Shown: piece by piece, positions 12,055-46,875 of the stretch
Layout: the number at the start of each line of letters is the position of its first letter
Position numbering within the stretch: position 1 is the first letter of the stretch
Source of the DNA: Candidatus Woesearchaeota archaeon
GTDB lineage: Archaea; Nanobdellota; Nanobdellia; SCGC-AAA011-G17; JACPNG01
Direction of reading: 5' to 3'
DNA length: 64,000 nt
NCBI GenBank assembly: GCA_016185615.1
Contig: JACPNE010000003.1
Coordinates: forward strand, 6,265 to 70,264
Position numbers and translations under genes: made by a program
Notes under the pieces: model-generated
Seen by the model: only the letters and a program-made list of their open reading frames with translations
Told to the model about the DNA's origin: nothing
Database searches by the model: none

Positions 12055-12672
12055 ATGGATGGAGAGATAATAACCTATGAAGTGCTGTATGACATACTAA
12101 GAAAAGAGAAGTATAATCAAGAATTACAGCGTCTAGACAAAGATTTCTTTGAAAAGGTAACAAAGTACATTAATGAAAAGATGTCTATATTAGAATCGCA
12201 AGAACAGAAAACAAGTATATTTGCCTCAACAGAGCTACAGAAAACAAGAAAACAATTAGAAAATATTAGTAAAATATTAAAAGATTTATATGAAAGAAGG
12301 GAAAATAAGATTATTCAAATTGCCTTGTTTGCATCTAAAACTAAAGAAAAGCCAGATTTGTCAGTATTATTGCCTGACGAACAAGGATTTTATAATTCAA
12401 TAATACTTATCCTAAACCAGTATAGGATGAATATCTTATTTAATGTATTAGAAGGCAAAGCACCAAGAATAGTAGAAGTAGAGAAACCAAAAGAATTAAA
12501 AAGCCAAAATAAGGATAAAGAAAACAAAACAATAATGTTTACTGAAAACGTGCCTAAGTTTATGGGTGATGACCTTAGTATATATGGTCCATTTAAACAA
12601 GAGGATATAGCCTCATTGCCAAAAATGATTGTTGAAATATTAGTAAGCAAGGGAAAAGCAAGGGAAATATGA
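12055..12672 (+). CDS. hypothetical protein, possibly GINS (Sld5/Gins51-like) replication factor
   Basis: 205 aa. The N-terminal helical pattern ITYEVLYDILRKEKYNQELQRLDKDFFEKVTKYI...RRENKIIQIAL resembles archaeal GINS A-domains. This is a weak, motif-level call only. Confidence 0.4.
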   Translation: MDGEIITYEVLYDILRKEKYNQELQRLDKDFFEKVTKYINEKMSILESQEQKTSIFASTELQKTRKQLENISKILKDLYERRENKIIQIALFASKTKEKPDLSVLLPDEQGFYNSIILILNQYRMNILFNVLEGKAPRIVEVEKPKELKSQNKDKENKTIMFTENVPKFMGDDLSIYGPFKQEDIASLPKMIVEILVSKGKAREI

Positions 12673-37187: not shown

Positions 37188-37856
37188 TTAAGTTGTTGAT
37201 TTTTTTATTATTCCCCAAACTATTAAAGCTATTGATCCCAAAAATGCTATATTAAACCATGGCATTAAGTCTATAGGAATTGCAGGACTAAAAATAAAAA
37301 AATTAAAACCAGTGTACTGGTCCAATAAACCAAAATAAGCCATATAAAATACAATGTATGCTCCACCCATTCCAATTAATCCTGAACCAGTAGTCTGATC
37401 TAAGATACTATAAACAAAAACTGAAAGTAGGATTATGATTATGAAAAATGCCCAAGGTCCAAAATTTTCTAATAATGAAAATCCGGTTTGTCTTTCCCAA
37501 ATTAACAAAGCTATTGATAAAAATATTCCTAGTCCAACATAAACAGCTTTTCCTCCTCCCTCTAAATGTTTTCCTAAGATTGATTGTCCTAAACCTAAGA
37601 ATATAGCTAAAAATATTCCCAAATCAAAAAAACTTGTATACTGATAATACAATTCTAGAATATCAAATTGATCATAACCTAAACCATATCCCCTATAAAC
37701 TGCTCCAGAAGTAAAATTTCCAGAGATTAAAAATAATACAAATATTCCAAGGAAGATACTCCCAGTTATTGCTATCTTGCTAGAGATATTATGAAGAGTT
37801 ATTCTATACTCTTCTTTTTTCTGAGTCCTCTTTTTCTTCATTATTATCCTAAACAA
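37188..37856 (-). CDS. polytopic membrane protein with internally duplicated LENFG/FD-type motif (family shared with 43471-45119)
   Basis: 222 aa. The segments SFFDLGIFLAIFLGLGQSILGKHLEGG and LLENFGPWAFFIIIILLSVFVYSILDQTTGSG both resemble the N-termini of the three paralogues at 43.5-45.1 kb. Confidence 0.6.
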   Translation of the reverse strand: MFRIIMKKKRTQKKEEYRITLHNISSKIAITGSIFLGIFVLFLISGNFTSGAVYRGYGLGYDQFDILELYYQYTSFFDLGIFLAIFLGLGQSILGKHLEGGGKAVYVGLGIFLSIALLIWERQTGFSLLENFGPWAFFIIIILLSVFVYSILDQTTGSGLIGMGGAYIVFYMAYFGLLDQYTGFNFFIFSPAIPIDLMPWFNIAFLGSIALIVWGIIKKSTT

Positions 37857-37879: not shown

Positions 37880-40045
37880 TCAAGCCACAGAAGTTATAAC
37901 ATTAATTCCATTCGCTAATACATTAAATACAAATATTCCAATTAATGATATAATAAAGTATAATCCAACCCCAAATATTAAACTTTTCCCAAGTTCATAT
38001 TTTCTCATAATCTTATCATCATTATTTTCAATTGCATTCCTTAAAATTGTTAATACAATTATTATTTCTAAGATATAAATTCCTATAACCAATTGAAAAT
38101 GAAAGCTTGGGATTACATCCTCTATCCTTAATATTTCTATTAATCCTTGTAAATTTCCAACCCCTTCCTCATTTGTCAGAGATACTGATTTGAACTGCTC
38201 CCCAAGCTTATTTATTATTGTAACAACCATTGAAGCGACTCCGACAACAATTGCTGCTATCATTGGTGCTAAGAAACTCGCTTGAGATTTCATGCTGCTT
38301 ATTATTTCTGCTAATAAATCTTTCATCCTTTCAGCCACCTTATGAATTCTATCTGCATAAACTGAGATGCTGATAAGACTCTTTGATACAACTTCAGGGC
38401 CTTTCTTAGCACTCTCAATCAAAACTTTCATGCTACTTTCAATTAGTTTAGAAGGAAAGTAAAGCAATGCTCCCCTTTCTTGATTGAATATTGCTTCATT
38501 AACGCTCATTCCCAGTTTTCTAATATTTATATTTACAATTCTAAAGAAGTTTCCTGTTGGCGTTCCTTCCAAGTCTTCTGAAATTTTTCCGAATGCCGAT
38601 TCAACAGGAATTCCACTGCCAACCCTATTTCCTAATTGAAACAAACTTCCTGTAAACTCTCTTTCTAGTTTATCTGTCTCTCTTTTGATGTCAATTAAAT
38701 TTTTTGTGTTTGCTTTGTAATACATTCCAATTGCTAAAGCCAATCCTAATGGGACAAATAAACTAAGTATCAAAGACCAAATCCCATATGGCCCGATGTA
38801 TTTATTACATACCCCATTTATTTCTTCTAAACATTTGTAATCAAGAAGTTTGCCGCCAATCCCCTCCTCCAAGAATCCAACCTGATCAAAATCATTAGTA
38901 ATTAAATGTAGCAAAACGGGCATAAATCCAATTAGTAAAAAAACAAATCCGATTAATAAAGAGATTAATAATGCTGAATCATTTTTATATTTTTTAACTT
39001 CTGGATTATTCTCAAATAAATCACTCTCTCCAAAACCACTAACTCTTTTTGATAAAATATTAATTCCTAATATTAAGACTAAAGGGGGAAGTAAAAAATT
39101 GTAGATAATTGATAAATGCCACCATTTAACTGCACCCCTCAAGAAACTTGAAACTAAAGGAAATATTACAATTCCCAATATTGGCAATATAATTCCAAGC
39201 ATATGTAACATTGTAATTGGAGAATTTAACTCATGTGCAAAATGTAACATCTTGTCATATGTTCCATCAAGCATGACTTCTAAGCTCTTATCAAGCAAAG
39301 CGACTCTTTTTGATTCATTAGGCTCTTGTAAACTTGCTTCAATTAAATGTAAAGATTCTACAAACTCTAAATTATAATTTTTCCATCCCTCTAAATAAAC
39401 ATCAAGACTTTCTTTCATTGTTGAATATTTATCGGTTTCAACATCCCAGAAAACTTTTCTTAAATCCAAAGCCATTGGATTTCCTATGTGCTCCCCAGCA
39501 AATTTAATTGCTCTTTCTAAATTGCTTGTATGTCTCATATACATAACAACATAAAGAATGCATAAAACCATTTGATTACTTGCCTTTAGTCTATATCTGT
39601 TAGCCAAATAATTTGGTATTTTGCTTAATGGCTTTATTATTAATGCTCCTAACAACAACAGGAATAACGGGGTAAAGATTAATATTTCTCCAAGAAAAAA
39701 TGAAACTAAAGCAACTATGGCTGCAATTAGTATTATTATTCCGGCTAAAATAACTGAAAAACTATAAGCCCCAATTGGAGTTATGTCTAAATGTAATATG
39801 TTTATTGATTTTTGTAATTCTTCTTCATCTTTTTGTTGAGGTTTTATCTTGATAATCCCTTCGGAAAAATTGCATAAATTTTCATAAATTGTTGTTTTTT
39901 TATCCAATAATTCTTTTCTGAATATATCATATTCTCTGGAAAACACCTCATTTGTTGGAAGATTTTCAAAAGAAAGATTTGATGTGCTTTCTAATTTTTT
40001 GCTATACTCTCCAAGAATCCTCTTTGTTTTTTCATCAATCTGCAT
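37880..40045 (-). CDS. type IV pilus/archaellum-type platform membrane protein (FlaJ/TadC/PilC-like)
   Basis: 721 aa, with many TM helices interleaved with two soluble helical regions. Immediately downstream of the secretion ATPase (1-nt spacer). The assignment is by architecture and position, not by motif. Confidence 0.65.
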   Translation of the reverse strand: MQIDEKTKRILGEYSKKLESTSNLSFENLPTNEVFSREYDIFRKELLDKKTTIYENLCNFSEGIIKIKPQQKDEEELQKSINILHLDITPIGAYSFSVILAGIIILIAAIVALVSFFLGEILIFTPLFLLLLGALIIKPLSKIPNYLANRYRLKASNQMVLCILYVVMYMRHTSNLERAIKFAGEHIGNPMALDLRKVFWDVETDKYSTMKESLDVYLEGWKNYNLEFVESLHLIEASLQEPNESKRVALLDKSLEVMLDGTYDKMLHFAHELNSPITMLHMLGIILPILGIVIFPLVSSFLRGAVKWWHLSIIYNFLLPPLVLILGINILSKRVSGFGESDLFENNPEVKKYKNDSALLISLLIGFVFLLIGFMPVLLHLITNDFDQVGFLEEGIGGKLLDYKCLEEINGVCNKYIGPYGIWSLILSLFVPLGLALAIGMYYKANTKNLIDIKRETDKLEREFTGSLFQLGNRVGSGIPVESAFGKISEDLEGTPTGNFFRIVNINIRKLGMSVNEAIFNQERGALLYFPSKLIESSMKVLIESAKKGPEVVSKSLISISVYADRIHKVAERMKDLLAEIISSMKSQASFLAPMIAAIVVGVASMVVTIINKLGEQFKSVSLTNEEGVGNLQGLIEILRIEDVIPSFHFQLVIGIYILEIIIVLTILRNAIENNDDKIMRKYELGKSLIFGVGLYFIISLIGIFVFNVLANGINVITSVA

Positions 40046-40046
40046 C

Positions 40047-42308
40047 TTAAAGCTGTCTCATTCTTATTCTTCTTTTTAACCATTCTTCCCAACTAAAAAA
40101 TATTCTCTTATTGTCAAGGTATCCAACTTCTTCTTTCACTATCTCGCTTATCCTATGGAATTGGTCATTCGAGTCTATAACAAACTTAGCTTCTAATAAT
40201 GAATCATTTTTTAGTTTATCTGCATAATTAACTAGTGTTTCTTTTATTTTTGCTCTTAATAATATATTTTCCCAGATAGCATCCCAGTTACCAGCCCACT
40301 CCTTAACATTTCCGCCTATCTCCTTGATTATTTCACTGTCTCCGTTTATCAAGTCATCAGTAGGAATTAGCATGTCTTTCTTTGTATCATATTTCATCAG
40401 ATCAACAAATCCTCTTTCTCTCAATGGATCTTCTTCCCAATGTTTTCTTACTTCAGTTATTTGGGTAATCCTCCTCCATTTATGCAACCCATCCGGACTT
40501 TTCATTGGATTTGCAACAACAATGATGTCTGTTGCTTTAAAGCTAGTTTTTGGAACTTTCAAATCATTTACAACCCTATCAAATACCCCATAAGGAGAAT
40601 CTCCATGTATTGTACCAGCAACGACATTTGCTAATGCACCTATTCTCATAGCTTCATAAAGTGCAAATGCTTCCAAACTTCTTATCTCCCCAATTATTAA
40701 GCTAGAGTCTCCTAATCTTAGTGCTGTTCTTATCCCCTCATCAGCAGCTACTTCAGTTCCTCCTTTTGTCAAAGCACTTCTAACTTTCATCTGTTGGACA
40801 TTATATCCTAATTCTCTTAGGGCATCAACTGGCAATTCTAAAGTATCTTCTAATGTTATTATTCTATACTTTCTCATTATCTCAACCAAAATTGATCCCA
40901 ATAAGCTAGTTTTTCCAGAACTTCTAGTTCCTGCAACTAACATTGTTCTTGAGCCATCTATTAAGAAACTCAATAATCCTGATCCTAATGGACTTATCAT
41001 CCCATTTTTAATGAATAATGGCAAAGTCCAAGGCTTATCTCTATGTCTTCTTAGGGCATAAGCTAATCCATATGGATTTAATGGTCTTTGTATTATTGCA
41101 ACTCTTGCCCTTGAGCTTGGTAAAATTAATTCTGTATCAAGTATTGGATTTGCTTCATCTAATGGTCTTCCACTTAATATCCTAAACTTTGATGCCCATG
41201 ACTCTGCATCCTCATTGCTAGGAACTAAATTTGTTGAACATTCACCATAATCCTCATGAACTAGGAATATTGGTGTTTGTCCTACTGGAGCATTTAACGT
41301 TATATCTTGTACTTTTTTGTCTTCTAATAAAATTTCTAGTACACCAAAGCCAATAGTATATCTAACTAATATTTGTGCTAGTTCATTTAATTCTTCAAAT
41401 GTAACCTCTACATTTCTTGATTCAGCTAATTCTTGTAATAAATCCCTTCCAATATTAAAGAAAGTATTTCTCATTTTTTCTGGCTCTAGGAATTCTTCCT
41501 CTCTGGGCTTGTGTTCTGCTAATACCCCTCTAGCTAAATCCAATAATTCATATTTATCTTCTGTTAATTTAAATTCAGGGGGAGTTAAATGATATAATGA
41601 TTTTATATCTTTCTCAGTATTGTATATTACAACATCGCTTTCTCCGAAAGAATAAACACTTAATTGCTCTCCGTCTAATGGGTGCTGTGCCATTAATCTT
41701 GTAAACATAAAATCTGGGGTAATAATCGGTCTAAAGATAGATGAATACAAACTTCTGTCTCCAATTTTATAAGCTGCTAAATTTTTTCTTGCTACATTGA
41801 TTAATTTTGTTTTATCTAATATCCCGTAGACATATTCTAATATATTGATATAAGACTGTTGAACCTCAACTAAATCAAGAGGAACTTTATTTAATTTTAT
41901 TTTTTCTTCTCTTATTAATCGTCTTAATTCAATATACGCTCCAAGTGGATCTGCTCTAAGTAAATTTATGATTAGATCTTGTAATTTAGTCTGCCATTCA
42001 GCTAAAAAATTCATGGCTCCTGGTTTTGAAGCTATGTCTGCTAAAGTTAAAATTTTTTTCTGTTTAATAAGCATTTTATACAAATTGGCAATCTCAACAA
42101 GCATCTGTGTTTGTTCATATCCATAGCTATAATTTCTTCTTTGAGTAAAAACTATTCTTCCTGTACTTGGAACTTGGACTAAATAGTCTATAGTTTTAGC
42201 CATCACAACAGCATTACCTTCTATACTAGGAACAAAACTCCATTGATTAGCATTTATTCTAAGAATATCCTCTCTTCCCTCTTTTAGAACTTGATAATCT
42301 TCTGTCAT
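40047..42308 (-). CDS. type II/IV secretion-system family ATPase (FlaI/PilB/VirB11 superfamily) with long N-terminal extension
   Basis: Walker A AGTRSSGKTS, Asp-box/Walker B region TLEDTLEL...SSLIIGEIRSLEA, His-box AGTIHG. 753 aa. Confidence 0.85.
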   Translation of the reverse strand: MTEDYQVLKEGREDILRINANQWSFVPSIEGNAVVMAKTIDYLVQVPSTGRIVFTQRRNYSYGYEQTQMLVEIANLYKMLIKQKKILTLADIASKPGAMNFLAEWQTKLQDLIINLLRADPLGAYIELRRLIREEKIKLNKVPLDLVEVQQSYINILEYVYGILDKTKLINVARKNLAAYKIGDRSLYSSIFRPIITPDFMFTRLMAQHPLDGEQLSVYSFGESDVVIYNTEKDIKSLYHLTPPEFKLTEDKYELLDLARGVLAEHKPREEEFLEPEKMRNTFFNIGRDLLQELAESRNVEVTFEELNELAQILVRYTIGFGVLEILLEDKKVQDITLNAPVGQTPIFLVHEDYGECSTNLVPSNEDAESWASKFRILSGRPLDEANPILDTELILPSSRARVAIIQRPLNPYGLAYALRRHRDKPWTLPLFIKNGMISPLGSGLLSFLIDGSRTMLVAGTRSSGKTSLLGSILVEIMRKYRIITLEDTLELPVDALRELGYNVQQMKVRSALTKGGTEVAADEGIRTALRLGDSSLIIGEIRSLEAFALYEAMRIGALANVVAGTIHGDSPYGVFDRVVNDLKVPKTSFKATDIIVVANPMKSPDGLHKWRRITQITEVRKHWEEDPLRERGFVDLMKYDTKKDMLIPTDDLINGDSEIIKEIGGNVKEWAGNWDAIWENILLRAKIKETLVNYADKLKNDSLLEAKFVIDSNDQFHRISEIVKEEVGYLDNKRIFFSWEEWLKRRIRMRQL

Positions 42309-42391: not shown

Positions 42392-42838
42392 ATGGCTCAA
42401 GAATCAGATCTTTCATATGTTCTAAGCGACCTAAACTCAAGGTTAAGGGTGCTTGAGAGTAGGTACAACATACTTGGGGAAAGACTTCTCGTAATAAATA
42501 AGAACATGATAGAAGAATATAAAAAATTGTTAAATGAGATTAGGGCAATAGACTCAGAATTAAAAGAATTTAAGAATGATTTATTTAATGTTAAAGAAAC
42601 TACAAAAAGGGTTCTTGACGAATTTGGAAGTTTTGCTAAAAAAGAAAACATAAAAGTCCTTGAGAAATATATAAATATGTGGAATCCAATTCAATTTATA
42701 AGGGAAGAAGACGTTGAAAGAATAGTAAGCAAAAAAATGGATAAGTTTGCAACAAAGGAAGATATTCAAAAATTAATAAAAGAGTTAACAACAAAAGAAG
42801 ATGTTAAAAGATTAATACGGGGTGAAAGATTTGGATGA
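42392..42838 (+). CDS. coiled-coil protein, divergent from the pilus ATPase
   Basis: 148 aa. Heptad-rich (LNSRLRVLESRYNILGERLLVINKNMIEEYKKLLNEIRAIDSELKEFKNDL). No TM. Confidence 0.5.
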   Translation: MAQESDLSYVLSDLNSRLRVLESRYNILGERLLVINKNMIEEYKKLLNEIRAIDSELKEFKNDLFNVKETTKRVLDEFGSFAKKENIKVLEKYINMWNPIQFIREEDVERIVSKKMDKFATKEDIQKLIKELTTKEDVKRLIRGERFG

Positions 42839-43481
42839 TATTCCTACTGAAGAAGCCATGGATTTGAATAAAAGGGGACTAAAAAAAGGAGAGATAGTTA
42901 AAAAATTAGAAGAAAAAGGTTACAGACCCCAACAAATAAATGATGCTTTTAACCAAATTGATATCAAAAGTGGGATAAGTGGAAAATATCCTTATGAAGA
43001 TGTTTCTCACCCGGGAATGGAATCTTCCGTATTAAACCTAGAAGAAGAGGCCCCTTCTCCAACACAAATGGAAGAAAGGGAGATTCCTCAGCAAAGGCAA
43101 AATATTTCTACTCCGCAAATACCTCAAGTTACACAACGAGATTATAGTGCAGATACAGAAGAATTGATAGAAGCTGTAATAGAAGAAAAATGGCAGGAGT
43201 TTATGGATAGACTCGGAGATATGGAGTCTTGGAAGATAAGAACCGATGATGATATTACATCAATAAAACAAGAGGTTATTAGATTAGGTAAAAGATTTGA
43301 TAACTTACAAAGTTCAATAGTACAAAAAGTAGGGGAATACAACCAAAATATAATGGATGTAAATACTGAAATTAAAGCACTAGAAAAAGTATTCCAGAAT
43401 ATAATAGATCCTTTAACAAATAATATTAAAGAGCTAGGAAGAATAACAAAAGATTTGAAAGGGAATAAAACTAATTTTTAG
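42822..43481 (+). CDS. coiled-coil protein with small N-terminal helical domain and Pro/Gln-rich linker
   Basis: 219 aa. N-terminal RGLKKGEIVKKLEEKGYRPQQINDAF, a linker rich in P/Q/E, and a C-terminal coiled coil. Overlaps the upstream ORF by 17 nt. Confidence 0.5.
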   Translation: MKDLDDIPTEEAMDLNKRGLKKGEIVKKLEEKGYRPQQINDAFNQIDIKSGISGKYPYEDVSHPGMESSVLNLEEEAPSPTQMEEREIPQQRQNISTPQIPQVTQRDYSADTEELIEAVIEEKWQEFMDRLGDMESWKIRTDDDITSIKQEVIRLGKRFDNLQSSIVQKVGEYNQNIMDVNTEIKALEKVFQNIIDPLTNNIKELGRITKDLKGNKTNF

Positions 43482-44004
43482 CAGAAATTAATCTTACTGC
43501 TTGTGAAGCAATTACTAGAATAAATAATGTCCCCAACATTCTTGGATGGAAGAGTATTCTACCTATATCAAAAGTTATCCCCTCTCTTGCAGTCTCTTCA
43601 GAGCCATACAATCCTTGGATTACTGGACCATAAACTTGGGACATTGCAAATCCAAATATTCCTACAATAGCTATTATTGCTATTGTCCATACAACCCAAT
43701 TTTCTGAAAAAACACTTACAACTAATTTTTCATCCACTCCAACCATCATGAACACTAAGACTAACATTATGATAAAAATAAACATAAATACAAACCATGG
43801 TGTTGCTACATTCAAAACATCTTTTACTCCCGGAGTCAACATAAATAGCATAGCCATAGAAAAAGCAACAACTGTATTTATGTTGGAACTTTTTCCGAAT
43901 AAAGGCACCCTTGCAAGAATAGCATATAATACTCCAAATACAAATAAGAATGTGAATATTGGTTTGAAATAAACTACTAAACTTGTATCTAACACTGTTG
44001 CCAT
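43471..44004 (-). CDS. polytopic membrane protein, paralogue 3 of tandem family
   Basis: 177 aa. FKPIFTFLFVFGVLYAILARVPLFGKSSNINTVVAFSMAMLF aligns with the two upstream paralogues. Confidence 0.6.
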   Translation of the reverse strand: MATVLDTSLVVYFKPIFTFLFVFGVLYAILARVPLFGKSSNINTVVAFSMAMLFMLTPGVKDVLNVATPWFVFMFIFIIMLVLVFMMVGVDEKLVVSVFSENWVVWTIAIIAIVGIFGFAMSQVYGPVIQGLYGSEETAREGITFDIGRILFHPRMLGTLFILVIASQAVRLISAKN

Positions 44005-44016
44005 TTTTAATTACTT

Positions 44017-44574
44017 TTAATTTTTACCCCCTCTAAGCTCAGTTGCTAATTTTTCTAAAATTCCCTCTTCTCCTTGTTTTTTCTCTTCCCTTGTTACAAG
44101 CCAAATGATTATAACAAATACACCAACAAAAATTACGGTTCCTTTCGTTTGATCATCAAGATTAGTCAAATAATCTGGAAGGTCTAATGTTTCTCCTATT
44201 GTATTAGAAGATAATGCCCAGATTATGAATATTAATGAAACAAAAAATGCTACACCCAATAAATTTCCAGTCCATCCTGCATGTTCTTTTCCAACAAATA
44301 TTCCAACTAATAATAAGAACATCAGTATTATTATCATAAATATAGAAACATTAGGTAAAAATCTATTTACTAGTCCAACCAAAGCTTGATTTCTTATGAA
44401 TAATAATGCTATAACAAGTGAAACAACTATATTCAATTGTTTCATCTTTCCCAATATTTTTGATTTGTCTAAAACACCGAATGCTAATGTAAAGACTAAT
44501 AAGAAAGGCAACAATACATCAAAAGCTCCAATCTCTTCACCTAAATTTAATAAATCTCTAAAATCAATTGCCAT
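44017..44574 (-). CDS. polytopic membrane protein, paralogue 2 of tandem family
   Basis: 185 aa. LGEEIGAFDVLLPFLLVFTLAFGVLDKSKILGK...VVSLVIALLF. Confidence 0.6.
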   Translation of the reverse strand: MAIDFRDLLNLGEEIGAFDVLLPFLLVFTLAFGVLDKSKILGKMKQLNIVVSLVIALLFIRNQALVGLVNRFLPNVSIFMIIILMFLLLVGIFVGKEHAGWTGNLLGVAFFVSLIFIIWALSSNTIGETLDLPDYLTNLDDQTKGTVIFVGVFVIIIWLVTREEKKQGEEGILEKLATELRGGKN

Positions 44575-45119
44575 TATGCTTTGTCCTCTTTTGGGGTTCT
44601 TACGATGTATAATATCACCCCAACAATTATTGCTAAGAATATTAATGAGACTATAAAGGTTTGGTCCCAGTTCTCAGCAACATAATCCAAAATCGGGAAT
44701 AACCACCCAATTGAATTCATGAAGACTGCTAACACTGCAACAAATAAAACAAATATCAAAAATAGTTTCCAATTTTTATGTTTATCAAAACTAAATGGTT
44801 CATCCCCACTAACTAATGCTCCTGCTAACATCATAAAACTAACTATTATGACTAAAATTAAGGCTATTTGGGGCATTGATTCCCTTATTGAAAATACAAT
44901 CTCTTTTGTCACAACAACAAATAATGCTATAACAAAAGCAACCATTGAATTGACGCTTTTTCTTGTTACTTGAGCATCTCCCTCTTTCTCCCTACCAAAT
45001 ATTGCCGATTTCTCCAGAATAGCATAAACTATTGTAAAAACAAGTAAGAAAGGAAGTATAACATTAAAAAATCCAAAATTTTCTAAAAAATCTAGTGCGT
45101 TCTCTAAAGGCGTAGCCAT
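44574..45119 (-). CDS. polytopic membrane protein, paralogue 1 of tandem family
   Basis: 181 aa. FLENFGFFNVILPFLLVFTIVYAILEKSAIFGR...MVAFVIALFV. Confidence 0.6.
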   Translation of the reverse strand: MATPLENALDFLENFGFFNVILPFLLVFTIVYAILEKSAIFGREKEGDAQVTRKSVNSMVAFVIALFVVVTKEIVFSIRESMPQIALILVIIVSFMMLAGALVSGDEPFSFDKHKNWKLFLIFVLFVAVLAVFMNSIGWLFPILDYVAENWDQTFIVSLIFLAIIVGVILYIVRTPKEDKA

Positions 45120-45149
45120 AATCTACTAAAGAATAAATAGTATAAAAAT

Positions 45150-45425
45150 TTATTCCTTCTCTTCTTCTTTTTCTTCGTATGAAGGTATGGCTGATTTGCT
45201 AATTATTACTATGTCACCTATTGCCTTAACAAACTGATGAGGCACAATAACCCCTTTTGCTCCACCTAAAACCCTTGTTAAGAATGAATTTTTTGTTGCT
45301 CTAATTCTCCATCCAGAAATCTTATTCATAGTTAAAATGCCTTCTTCTATCTCTCCGAAATAATCTCCAGAATCAGTATAAACCTTCATATCATATGCGT
45401 CACTTATGTGTTTTATCTTTAGCAT
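45150..45425 (-). CDS. PRC-barrel domain protein
   Basis: 91 aa. ..YDMKVYTDSGDYFGEIEEGIL...VIVPHQFVKAIGDIVII is the typical PRC-barrel pattern. Acidic tail. Confidence 0.7.
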   Translation of the reverse strand: MLKIKHISDAYDMKVYTDSGDYFGEIEEGILTMNKISGWRIRATKNSFLTRVLGGAKGVIVPHQFVKAIGDIVIISKSAIPSYEEKEEEKE

Positions 45426-45482: not shown

Positions 45483-46151
45483 ATGGAAACTTACAAAAAC
45501 TTAATTATTATAGGAACATCTCATATTTCAATAGAAAGTGTAAAGGAAGTTGAATCTATAATTATCAACAAAAAACCAGAAATTGTTGCTATAGAACTTG
45601 ATAGATTAAGATATAGGGCATTAACATCAGAAGGCAGAAGGGTTGGTATAAAAGACATTAAATACATAGGTGTAAAGGGATATCTTTTTGGTATGTTTGG
45701 GGCATGGATTGAAAAACAACTTGGGAAGATTGTCAATGTTAAACCAGGTTCTGAGATGATAAAAGCTATAGAATCTGCAAAAAAAGTGGATGCAAAGGTA
45801 GCATTGATAGACCAAGACATAAGAATAACCTTAAAGAAGATATCAAAAGAGCTTACATGGAAAGAGAAATTTAATTTTGTTAAAGATATATTTGTGGGAA
45901 TTTTTTCAAAAAATAAAGTTAAAATTGATTTAAGGAAGGTTCCAGATAAGAAGCTGATAAAAGAGTTAGTAATAAAATTAAAAAAAGATTATCCGACACT
46001 CTATAAAGTTCTTATAGAAGAGAGAAACCAGATAATTGCAAAAAACTTAAATAAACTAATGTCTACTGATAAAAGGATAGTTGCGGTCATTGGTGCGGGA
46101 CATACTGATGATGTGCTTGATATTATAAAAAATGAAAATAAACAAAACTGA
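45483..46151 (+). CDS. TraB/PrgY (GumN-like) family protein
   Basis: LIIIGTSHISIESV, EIVAIELD, GSEM, ERNQIIAKNL and VIGAGHTDDV follow the TraB family motif order. Confidence 0.8.
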   Translation: METYKNLIIIGTSHISIESVKEVESIIINKKPEIVAIELDRLRYRALTSEGRRVGIKDIKYIGVKGYLFGMFGAWIEKQLGKIVNVKPGSEMIKAIESAKKVDAKVALIDQDIRITLKKISKELTWKEKFNFVKDIFVGIFSKNKVKIDLRKVPDKKLIKELVIKLKKDYPTLYKVLIEERNQIIAKNLNKLMSTDKRIVAVIGAGHTDDVLDIIKNENKQN

Positions 46152-46875
46152 GATAAAATATTTTGTTATAACTATTTTCTTCGTTACATTAGCATTAGCA
46201 TTTGATGATAAGATGCAAGAATTTGTATTAAGTAATTGGTTAACAAATTTTTTAGTTATATTAATTTTTGTTACAATCGCTGTTCTAGTCCATTATATTG
46301 GCCACAGATTAATGGCACGAAGATATAAGGTTGAAGTGGAGCACAGCATATGGCAAATGAGTCATTTTTACTTTACAAATTTTTTCTCAACAAGATTAAA
46401 AAAATCTGTACCGATTGGAATAATATTATCGATATTTATAAGTTTAGGTTCATTTGGACAAATGTTCTTTATTGCAATAGAATCATTTAATTTTAAGGAG
46501 AACAAACGTAGAAGAGTAGGTTTTAGATATGCAAATTTAACCGAATATGAAGTAGCTTTGATTTCTGCAGCCGGACCATTAGCCAATTTATTTTTTGCAT
46601 TACTGATAAAATTGGTTAATTTGCCATATCTTAATAATTTAATTTTCATAAATTTGTATTATAGCATCTTTCATATGATCCCATTCTCCGAATTAGATGG
46701 AAGTAAAGCACTTTTCAGCTCTCCTTTAATATATGTCTTTTCATTGTCTTTAATACTAATTTCATTATTGTTATTATACTTCTATTCCTTAACAATAACT
46801 GTAATATTATCATTACTTATTGCAATAATATTTACTACAACCTTTTTTATTGTGGTTTATGGGGATAGTTCATAA
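46132..46875 (+). CDS. M50/site-2-protease-like membrane protein with HYxxH in place of HExxH
   Basis: LVHYIGHRLMA (codons cat tat att ggc cac), ISAAGPLANLFFALL and NLYYSIFHMIPFSELDGSK (NxxPxxxLDG-like) match M50 topology, but the catalytic Glu position is Tyr. Confidence 0.55.
   Translation: MKINKTEIKYFVITIFFVTLALAFDDKMQEFVLSNWLTNFLVILIFVTIAVLVHYIGHRLMARRYKVEVEHSIWQMSHFYFTNFFSTRLKKSVPIGIILSIFISLGSFGQMFFIAIESFNFKENKRRRVGFRYANLTEYEVALISAAGPLANLFFALLIKLVNLPYLNNLIFINLYYSIFHMIPFSELDGSKALFSSPLIYVFSLSLILISLLLLYFYSLTITVILSLLIAIIFTTTFFIVVYGDSS

Follow-up and report, generated by a model that had tools for sequence, protein, structure and literature searches.

The DNA analyzed here, called the window in the following, is a stretch of 64,000 nt with a G+C content of ~30% from Candidatus Woesearchaeota archaeon (assembly GCA_016185615.1, contig JACPNE010000003.1, positions 6,265 to 70,264 of the forward strand). 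Its minus strand carries three consecutive genes for small membrane proteins, A, B and C (together the trio), which are the subject of this study. They are preceded by a gene for a 91-aa PRC-barrel protein, and the order of transcription is PRC gene, A, B, C. On the other side of the trio lie the genes for two coiled-coil proteins (CC1 and CC2), for a secretion ATPase and for a platform protein. The platform gene is followed by the gene for a further membrane protein, M222, and then by several genes with pilin-like N-termini (MDKRGQS...).

The spacing of the genes agrees with the co-oriented operon of PRC-barrel gene and trio that a first-pass annotation of this DNA had suggested. Only 30 nt separate the end of the PRC gene from the start of A, the stop codon of A and the start codon of B share one base (TAATG), and the gap between B and C is 12 nt. 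The sequence GGGAGG is located 7 nt ahead of the ATG of the PRC gene. Since the operon is translationally coupled, A, B and C are probably made in equal amounts. The 3' ends of C and of the convergent CC2 gene overlap by 11 nt.

A, B and C Are Members of One Undescribed Membrane Protein Family

A and B showed 30% identity over their full length (BLASTP E-value 2e-22), and the E-values were 3e-7 for A versus C and 5e-8 for B versus C. Hidden Markov models (HMMs) of the three subfamilies, built from other genomes, matched one another's members at 1e-38 to 2e-11. The HMM of the whole family matched A (2.5e-50), B (1.1e-52) and C (1.5e-45) over the full length. Judged from these sequence similarities, which are far beyond chance, the three are true paralogues. 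The first-pass annotation had already called the three consecutive open reading frames of 181, 185 and 177 aa paralogues, and both its coordinates and its N-terminal strings were correct.

All family members have a colinear layout of ~180 aa. An acidic amphipathic N-terminal helix is followed by the first transmembrane (TM) helix, TM1, with the motif L-P-F-L-L-V-F-T, by the motifs E/Q-K-T/S-K-I-F-G and K-N-x-N, by TM2, and after an L-P hinge by three further TM helices. In member A, a Lys-rich loop with a beta-hairpin follows TM1. The near-invariant TM1 of A with its flanks (G-x-F-D-V-I-L-P-F-L-L-V-F-T-I-V-F-A-I-L-E-K-T-K-I-F-G) is the best-conserved and also the best-modelled part of the protein. 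The residues G16, P23, F24, L26, F28, L35, K37, G42 and G100 of A are invariant, and Asp19 and Thr29 of TM1 are the only conserved polar or charged residues within the TM helices. The C subfamily has a specific C-terminal motif, F-H-P-K/R-V/M-L-G.

The AlphaFold2 (AF2) model of A reached a predicted local distance difference test score (pLDDT) of 74 and a predicted TM-score (pTM) of 0.46. Model and hydropathy together gave an amphipathic N-terminal helix, TM1, a short beta-hairpin, a long helix, TM4, a short helix and TM5; hydropathy splits the long helix into TM2 and TM3 around the conserved Leu-Pro. We counted Lys and Arg residues in 102 A-type sequences. They were numerous in loop 1 (5.4), loop 3 (2.2) and the C-terminal tail (3.2) and scarce at the N-terminus (1.1), in the hinge (0.4) and in loop 4 (0.7). 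This distribution (positive-inside rule) supports the topology predicted for the trio proteins, in which five TM helices leave the N-terminus outside and the C-terminus in the cytoplasm. One 365-aa representative from the profile search described below (P0121) is a fusion of A and B via a linker of Ser, Pro, Gln, Asn and Gly. If the fusion is real and no assembly error, it supports contact between A and B. With an odd number of TM helices it is in conflict, unless the linker spans the membrane.

None of the three proteins had a match above threshold in Pfam, NCBIfam, PHROGs or PADLOC, and the family profiles matched no chain of the PDB. The fold search proposed earlier for the 181-aa protein was performed with Foldseek on the AF2 model of A and gave no match in the PDB better than E = 5. 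The family, which the first-pass annotation had also not recognized, is undescribed in the libraries and papers searched. Two candidate assignments were rejected. Acyl_transf_3 (PF01757; a model of ~326 positions with 10 TM helices) was the one match that recurred, but it was seen below threshold and in only 12 of 53 members; the best of these matches had 25.2 bits against a cut-off of 31 and covered model positions 128-265 only. Platform proteins of the T2SSF/PilC/FlaJ type were dismissed as there was neither a match to PF00482 nor a fold match.

The Trio Is Ancient and Near-Universal in Its Class

An even draw from the phylum of the window yielded 301 genomes, all of which fell into the same class. 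Family members were present in 297 of them, with 2-5 matches per genome. Some genomes had 4-5 matches; therefore, extra paralogues of the trio family exist. A word-indexed search found 323 homologues, all annotated as "hypothetical" and, where a source was named, from Woesearchaeota or Nanoarchaeota. An exhaustive profile search of 1.84 billion representatives returned 3,723 clusters at 50% identity with E ≤ 1e-3, and 2,664 with E ≤ 1e-10. The best 150 of the 3,723 matches were all family members of ~180 aa and linked the trio family neither to any known family nor to any other phylum.

We calculated a tree of the trio genes from 72 loci, which came from different species. Each of the three gene positions corresponded to a single clade, with support values of 92 (first), 94 (second) and 100 (third) in the Shimodaira-Hasegawa-like approximate likelihood ratio test (SH-aLRT). 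The position labels required two changes on this tree, which is the minimum possible, compared to a mean of 103 for shuffled labels. The triplication is therefore older than the radiation sampled. By the evidence of this tree it is ancient, and the order A-B-C was never scrambled. The A-B and B-C spacers had a median of 2 nt each, which is what one expects for subunits produced at a constant ratio.

The Trio Is Syntenic with the Coiled-Coil Pair and the Motor Genes

To describe the neighborhood, we used 80 trio-centred loci from a one-genome-per-species collection, annotated with HMMs built from the window proteins. They include the complete genome CP010426 of archaeon GW2011_AR20 (L060). Only loci with enough flanking DNA entered the count for a given neighbor. 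The genes form a stereotyped block with the order M50-like (-), TraB (-), PRC (+), A B C (+), CC2 CC1 (-), ATPase platform (+) and pilin-like genes (+). In 66-67 of 67 loci, B and C came directly after A. The two coiled-coil genes adjoined the trio in 58 of 63 loci and were found upstream of it in two more. An ATPase gene no more than 8 kb away from A was present in 44 of 52 loci, and the platform gene was near the trio in 34 of 46. CC1 and the ATPase gene were separated by a divergent spacer with a median of 92 nt. In a reciprocal sample of 80 metagenome loci centred on the platform gene, the trio was located upstream in 31 of the 35 loci that had a flank of at least 5.6 kb. The link between trio and ATPase/platform pair, which had been proposed from the window, was thus seen in ~150 loci from other genomes: an association with pilus genes recurs, and the family is not recognizable as a known transporter or housekeeping family.

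The tree of the concatenated A, B and C sequences was divided into two well-supported clades (99), and the window belongs to clade II. Among the 24 loci of clade I, none had the PRC/TraB/M50 block upstream of A, and most had kept trio, coiled-coil pair and ATPase; the PRC gene was present almost throughout clade II. Since it persists in clade I without this block, the association of trio, coiled-coil pair and ATPase spans both clades of the trio tree.

Some loci deviated from the stereotyped order. Trio and coiled-coil pair occurred without the motor genes in L064, L076, L081 and L082, while coiled-coil pair and motor genes occurred without the trio in L153. The presence of the coiled-coil pair with the trio alone or with the motor alone fits a bridging role of this pair. 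The trio stood alone amid housekeeping genes in L058, L083 and L025. Locus L125 had no trio within 10 kb. It contains a single divergent family member of 164 aa (12098-12592, minus strand) on a long branch, which was matched by the B-HMM at 2e-26. This gene abuts the platform gene, which is on the other strand, and a homologue of M222. L125 is an independent juxtaposition of a family member with the platform gene.

The Motor Genes Encode a Type IV Filament Core

The coordinates of the genes in the neighborhood of the trio are listed in Table 1.

Table 1. Genes of the trio region in the window.
Feature	Position	Strand	Description
M222 membrane protein	37188..37856	-	222 aa, own small family
Platform protein, divergent	37880..40045	-	721 aa, GspF/PilC-type cytoplasmic domains
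FlaI/TadA-like secretion ATPase	40047..42308	-	753 aa, PF00437
CC1	42392..42838	+	148 aa, coiled coil, divergent from ATPase
CC2	42822..43481	+	219 aa, coiled-coil protein, convergent with C
Trio member C	43471..44004	-	177 aa, most diverged copy
Trio member B	44017..44574	-	185 aa
Trio member A	44574..45119	-	181 aa
PRC-barrel protein, CdpB-type	45150..45425	-	91 aa, opens PRC-A-B-C operon
TraB/PrgY-family gene and M50/S2P-like membrane-protein gene	45483-46875	+	20-nt overlap

The ATPase matched PF00437 with 54.8 bits (cut-off 24.9). The NCBIfam models for FlaI and TadA gave ~120 bits, far below their cut-offs, and matched residues 291-692 only, which leaves an N-terminal extension of ~290 residues. 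This extension matched no model, and its length was conserved across orthologues of 750-765 aa. Archaeal type IV filament (T4F) ATPases have subsystem-specific N-terminal extensions, which were proposed to bind subsystem-specific accessory proteins (PMC13705601).

The 721-aa protein encoded next to the ATPase had no match in Pfam, and only 4 of 31 orthologues showed a weak, sub-threshold match to T2SSF. Its AF2 model (pLDDT 79, pTM 0.75) was matched in Foldseek by the cytoplasmic domains of EpsF, OutF and PilC with probabilities of 0.91-0.99 and target TM-scores of 0.6-0.7. The top match was PilC in 3JC8, a model of the type IVa pilus machine. Because its fold matches these domains, we concluded that the 721-aa protein is a divergent platform protein. 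With this assignment, which is based on a predicted structure, the genes at 37880-42308 are a T4F core consisting of a T2SSE-type ATPase and a GspF-fold platform. The first-pass annotation had read these genes as a pilus core, and the ATPase match, the platform model and the pilin-like genes downstream all agree with it.

CC2 begins with a small three-helix module, which a Pro/Gln-rich linker connects to a coiled coil at the C-terminus. The consensus of the N-terminal module is G-x-S-x-x-x-I-x-x-x-L-x-x-x-G-Y-x-x-x-Q-I-x-D-A-x-N-Q-A, and we take it to resemble a UBA-like fold; a weak match to Pfam UBA_3 was seen in one CC2 orthologue only. CC1 has the conserved C-terminal motif Y-I-N-L-W-N-P-x-x-F-V-T. 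Searches of the PDB and Pfam with CC1 and CC2 resulted in generic coiled-coil noise, with no match to FlaC_arch or Arch_fla_DE.

Genes Upstream of the Trio

The 91-aa protein, which had been called a small PRC-barrel protein before, matched PF05239 with 27.4 bits (cut-off 21.2). In the PDB it matched 8QZO (5.6e-11) and 8ONW (8e-11), both solved PRC-barrel structures; 8QZO is CdpB2 of Archaeoglobus fulgidus (PMC13488343).

The TraB and M50-like pair is kept upstream of the PRC gene throughout clade II. The metal motif of the M50/S2P-like protein is HYIGH and lacks the Glu. The evolutionary rates of TraB and the M50-like protein showed the second-strongest covariation among all pairs tested (rho 0.43, p = 0.002). 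The conservation of the pair and its rate covariation suggest that the two proteins work together.

In five loci (L004 112-2030, L076, L077, L078 and L084) sepF and a gene for a 476-aa secreted protein are located just upstream of A on the opposite strand. The secreted protein has a C-terminal anchor and a faint match to NPCBM_assoc.

M222 Is Not Demonstrably a Member of the Trio Family

In the first-pass annotation, M222 was regarded as a fourth, internally duplicated copy of the family, and the resulting five modules were thought to bracket the ATPase/platform pair. M222 indeed contains the strings that were quoted for this. The family HMM matched M222 with an E-value of 0.66 among 17 sequences, which was worse than for several unrelated TM proteins. 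The hhalign probability for M222 versus the trio family was 6.6% with a 4-sequence profile and 1.0% with a 13-sequence profile, and the latter gave 14.6% against subfamily B alone. When the two halves of M222 were compared with each other, the probability was 0.3%, i.e., there was no similarity. On these grounds we rejected M222 as a member of the trio family, and we also rejected its internal duplication. As its membership is not demonstrable, there are three copies and not five, and no bracketing of the ATPase/platform pair is seen in the window.

A weak signal was detected in the other direction. The HMM of M222 matched B with 18 bits in a colinear fashion, and one M222 orthologue matched the B-HMM at 8.5e-5. 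If taken at face value, this sequence match would make M222 a single and very remote copy, not a double one, which is unproven. The invariant core of the M222 family reads W/F-F-D-x-x-I-F-L-x-I-F-L-G-L-G...G-G-K-A-V-Y-V-G-L-G-I-F-L...W-E-x-Q-T-G-x-x-L-L-E-N-F-G-P. M222 directly followed the platform gene in ~25 of the 80 platform-centred loci, and in only 5 of the trio-centred genome loci. Because of this position, M222 is probably another lineage-restricted accessory protein.

Discussion

Archaea of the Woesearchaeota type within the DPANN group occur in high abundance, have not been cultivated and presumably live in attachment to other cells. Pilus-like machines are prime candidates for mediating their cell contact. 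The system to which the trio most likely belongs is of a known kind, a T4F machine. On the basis of synteny we consider A, B and C to be membrane accessory subunits of a Nanoarchaeia-specific T4F machine, a proposal to which we give about even chances.

In the complex that we infer from these data, A, B and C would assemble into a hetero-oligomeric membrane sub-complex located beside the platform protein. The Lys-rich cytoplasmic hairpin loops and tails of the trio would hold the soluble proteins CC1 and CC2, and these would contact the extra N-terminal region of ~290 residues of the hexameric ATPase. The physical contacts as well as the function are part of this inference. The whole assembly might anchor the motor and align it beneath the platform, as PilM/N/O, GspL/M and ArlX/ArlCDE do elsewhere. 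Such an accessory role fits the survey that ties subsystem-specific ATPase extensions to subsystem-specific accessory proteins (PMC13705601). That survey was unable to place most DPANN loci within one of the known T4F subsystems (Sivabalasarma & Albers 2026, PMC13705601). We more tentatively suggest, as a possibility that is still doubtful, that trio, CC1 and CC2 constitute a new membrane-plus-coiled-coil scaffold or stator for the T4F motor, which was invented once at the base of Woesearchaeota and Pacearchaeota and kept by nearly all members. In one clade, this scaffold may in addition have a connection to the division system of the CdpB type.

Several observations speak against an accessory role in the filament machine. 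The functional evidence is genomic context throughout, and the AF2 model of A is only moderately confident and has no structural analogue. The ATPase was not nearby in 8 of 52 trio loci, and the trio was not next to the platform gene in 4 of 35 loci; adjacency is therefore dispensable. Trio, coiled-coil pair and motor genes are organized as three transcription units, first convergent and then divergent, and not as one operon. The unrelated TraB/M50 pair is likewise syntenic (58% of loci), and general gene order is well preserved in these small genomes. Part of the synteny signal may therefore be inherited order. Evolutionary-rate covariation was calculated on a fixed tree, with ATPase-platform (rho 0.49) and TraB-M50 (rho 0.43) as controls, both of which gave a good signal. 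It was weak for the trio (B-platform rho 0.36, A-CC2 rho 0.24) and non-specific at the level of modules, as all modules except PRC were correlated (ABC-TraB/M50 0.48). Finally, the operon is headed by a protein of the CdpB-type division family in one of the clades.

This last point leads to an alternative that the first-pass annotation had already raised in general terms, namely that the trio anchors a division or envelope complex of the FtsZ/SepF/CdpB type in the membrane and that the pilus genes are adjacent by inherited gene order. The trio would then be the functional counterpart of haloarchaeal CdpA and would work with the co-transcribed CdpB-like PRC protein. CdpA of Haloferax (HVO_0739), the membrane anchor of the division ring, has a small polytopic domain and acts together with SepF and the PRC-barrel proteins CdpB1/2 (PMC12126565). 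The resemblance of the 91-aa protein to CdpB, its position as the first gene, which it holds both in the window and in 46 of 79 loci, the occurrence of sepF ~1.7 kb upstream of A in the five loci of a sub-clade without the PRC gene, and the near-universality of the family, as expected for a housekeeping function, are all consistent with this view. The association of the trio with the coiled-coil pair and the ATPase, however, persists in the clade that lacks the PRC gene upstream of A, which weakens the division alternative; of the earlier suggestion, the CdpB-like nature of the PRC protein stood, while its linkage to the trio turned out to be restricted to one of the two major clades. The sepF genes are confined to one small sub-clade and to the opposite strand, and the rates of PRC, a short and noisy protein, did not covary with those of A, B or C (rho -0.03, 0.06 and -0.07). 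PRC-barrel genes occur in many unrelated neighborhoods (10.1101/2023.03.28.534520). The architecture also sets the trio apart from CdpA, in which a long disordered linker joins an N-terminal domain of 4 TM helices to a small C-terminal one: the trio proteins have five predicted TM helices, lack linker and C-terminal domain and always occur in threes. We regard a division role of the trio as distinctly unlikely.

The trio may also form an independent housekeeping membrane complex unrelated to pili or division, e.g., a small-solute or lipid-linked transporter or a membrane-biogenesis factor, whose position reflects frozen synteny in reduced genomes. Its near-universal presence in the class, its independent transcription unit, its persistence away from the motor among unrelated housekeeping genes (8 of 52 loci), the sub-threshold Acyl_transf_3 matches and the synteny of the unrelated TraB/M50 genes would all agree with such a function. 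Against it, Pfam, NCBIfam and PDB gave no significant match to a transporter or an enzyme by sequence or fold, and the TM helices have no conserved polar or charged residues beyond the two of TM1. Retention with the coiled-coil pair and the motor was also higher (85-92%) than that of the upstream block (58%) and was seen in both clades, and L125 shows an independent re-juxtaposition with the platform gene. A housekeeping complex of this kind seems unlikely to us. That A, B and C are pilin-like subunits or substrates cut by the prepilin peptidase after Gly16 is hardly credible. The conserved Gly ahead of a very hydrophobic and highly conserved first helix (G16|F-F-D-V-I-L-P-F-L-L) and the pilus neighborhood would suit pilins, but the segment ahead of Gly16 is acidic and has no Lys/Arg-Gly/Ala motif of class III signal peptides, the proteins have five predicted TM helices and no globular exported domain, and the true pilin-like genes of the locus are quite different. 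We therefore rejected the trio as type IV pilins or class III signal-peptide proteins.

If the trio proteins are accessory subunits of the filament machine, they would be comparable to PilM/PilN/PilO of type IVa pili and GspL/GspM of type II secretion, which are inner-membrane sub-complexes for alignment and assembly. These are also sets of paralogous small membrane proteins encoded beside ATPase and platform genes and associated with coiled-coil segments, and their presumed task is to anchor the cytoplasmic motor and to keep it aligned. PilN/O and GspL/M are, however, bitopic proteins with periplasmic ferredoxin-like domains, and they contain the coiled coils within their own chains. For the trio proteins, in contrast, five TM helices with hardly any mass outside the membrane are predicted, and the coiled coils reside on separate soluble proteins. 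The PDB profile and fold searches revealed no similarity to PilM/N/O or GspL/M in sequence or fold. ArlX/ArlCDE and other archaeal T4F accessory proteins share with the trio locus that lineage-specific accessory genes flank a conserved ArlI/ArlJ-like pair, that cytoplasmic coiled-coil proteins are encoded and that the ATPase has a subsystem-specific N-terminal extension. None of the archaeal T4F subsystems (Makarova et al. 2016; PMC13705601) is described with three paralogous polytopic proteins, and CC1 and CC2 differ from ArlCDE of the archaellum by the lack of matches to the respective Pfam families. The resemblance of the trio to all these systems would be a functional analogy only and no kinship.

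The trio family is probably among the anonymous families of module 98, which Castelle et al. 2021 (PMC8204110) introduced as 51 mostly unannotated protein families common to Woesearchaeota and Pacearchaeota. That module has the same taxonomic range as the trio, and its families are likewise unannotated and predicted to be membrane-bound. Its families were defined by presence or absence, and the passages on module 98 describe no trio, gene order or link to pili (PMC8204110).

The two-clade result for the PRC gene, the platform-centred sample, the fold of the platform protein, the topology from the positive-inside rule, the L125 locus and the rejection of the M222 copy are new here. Together with CC1 and CC2, the trio amounts to five conserved and unannotated proteins, which would form a coherent and near-universal accessory set for a DPANN machine. 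The set can serve as an annotation signature for the DPANN T4F machine, as a target for structure prediction, cryo-electron tomography and pull-down experiments, and as a test case for the way in which T4F motors gain anchors specific to a lineage. If, instead, the partner of the trio is the CdpB-type protein, the trio would be a candidate for the membrane anchor of the DPANN divisome. Should the scaffold proposal be true, the scaffold would be a core component, and one that defines the lineage, of the apparatus for cell contact that these episymbionts rely on.

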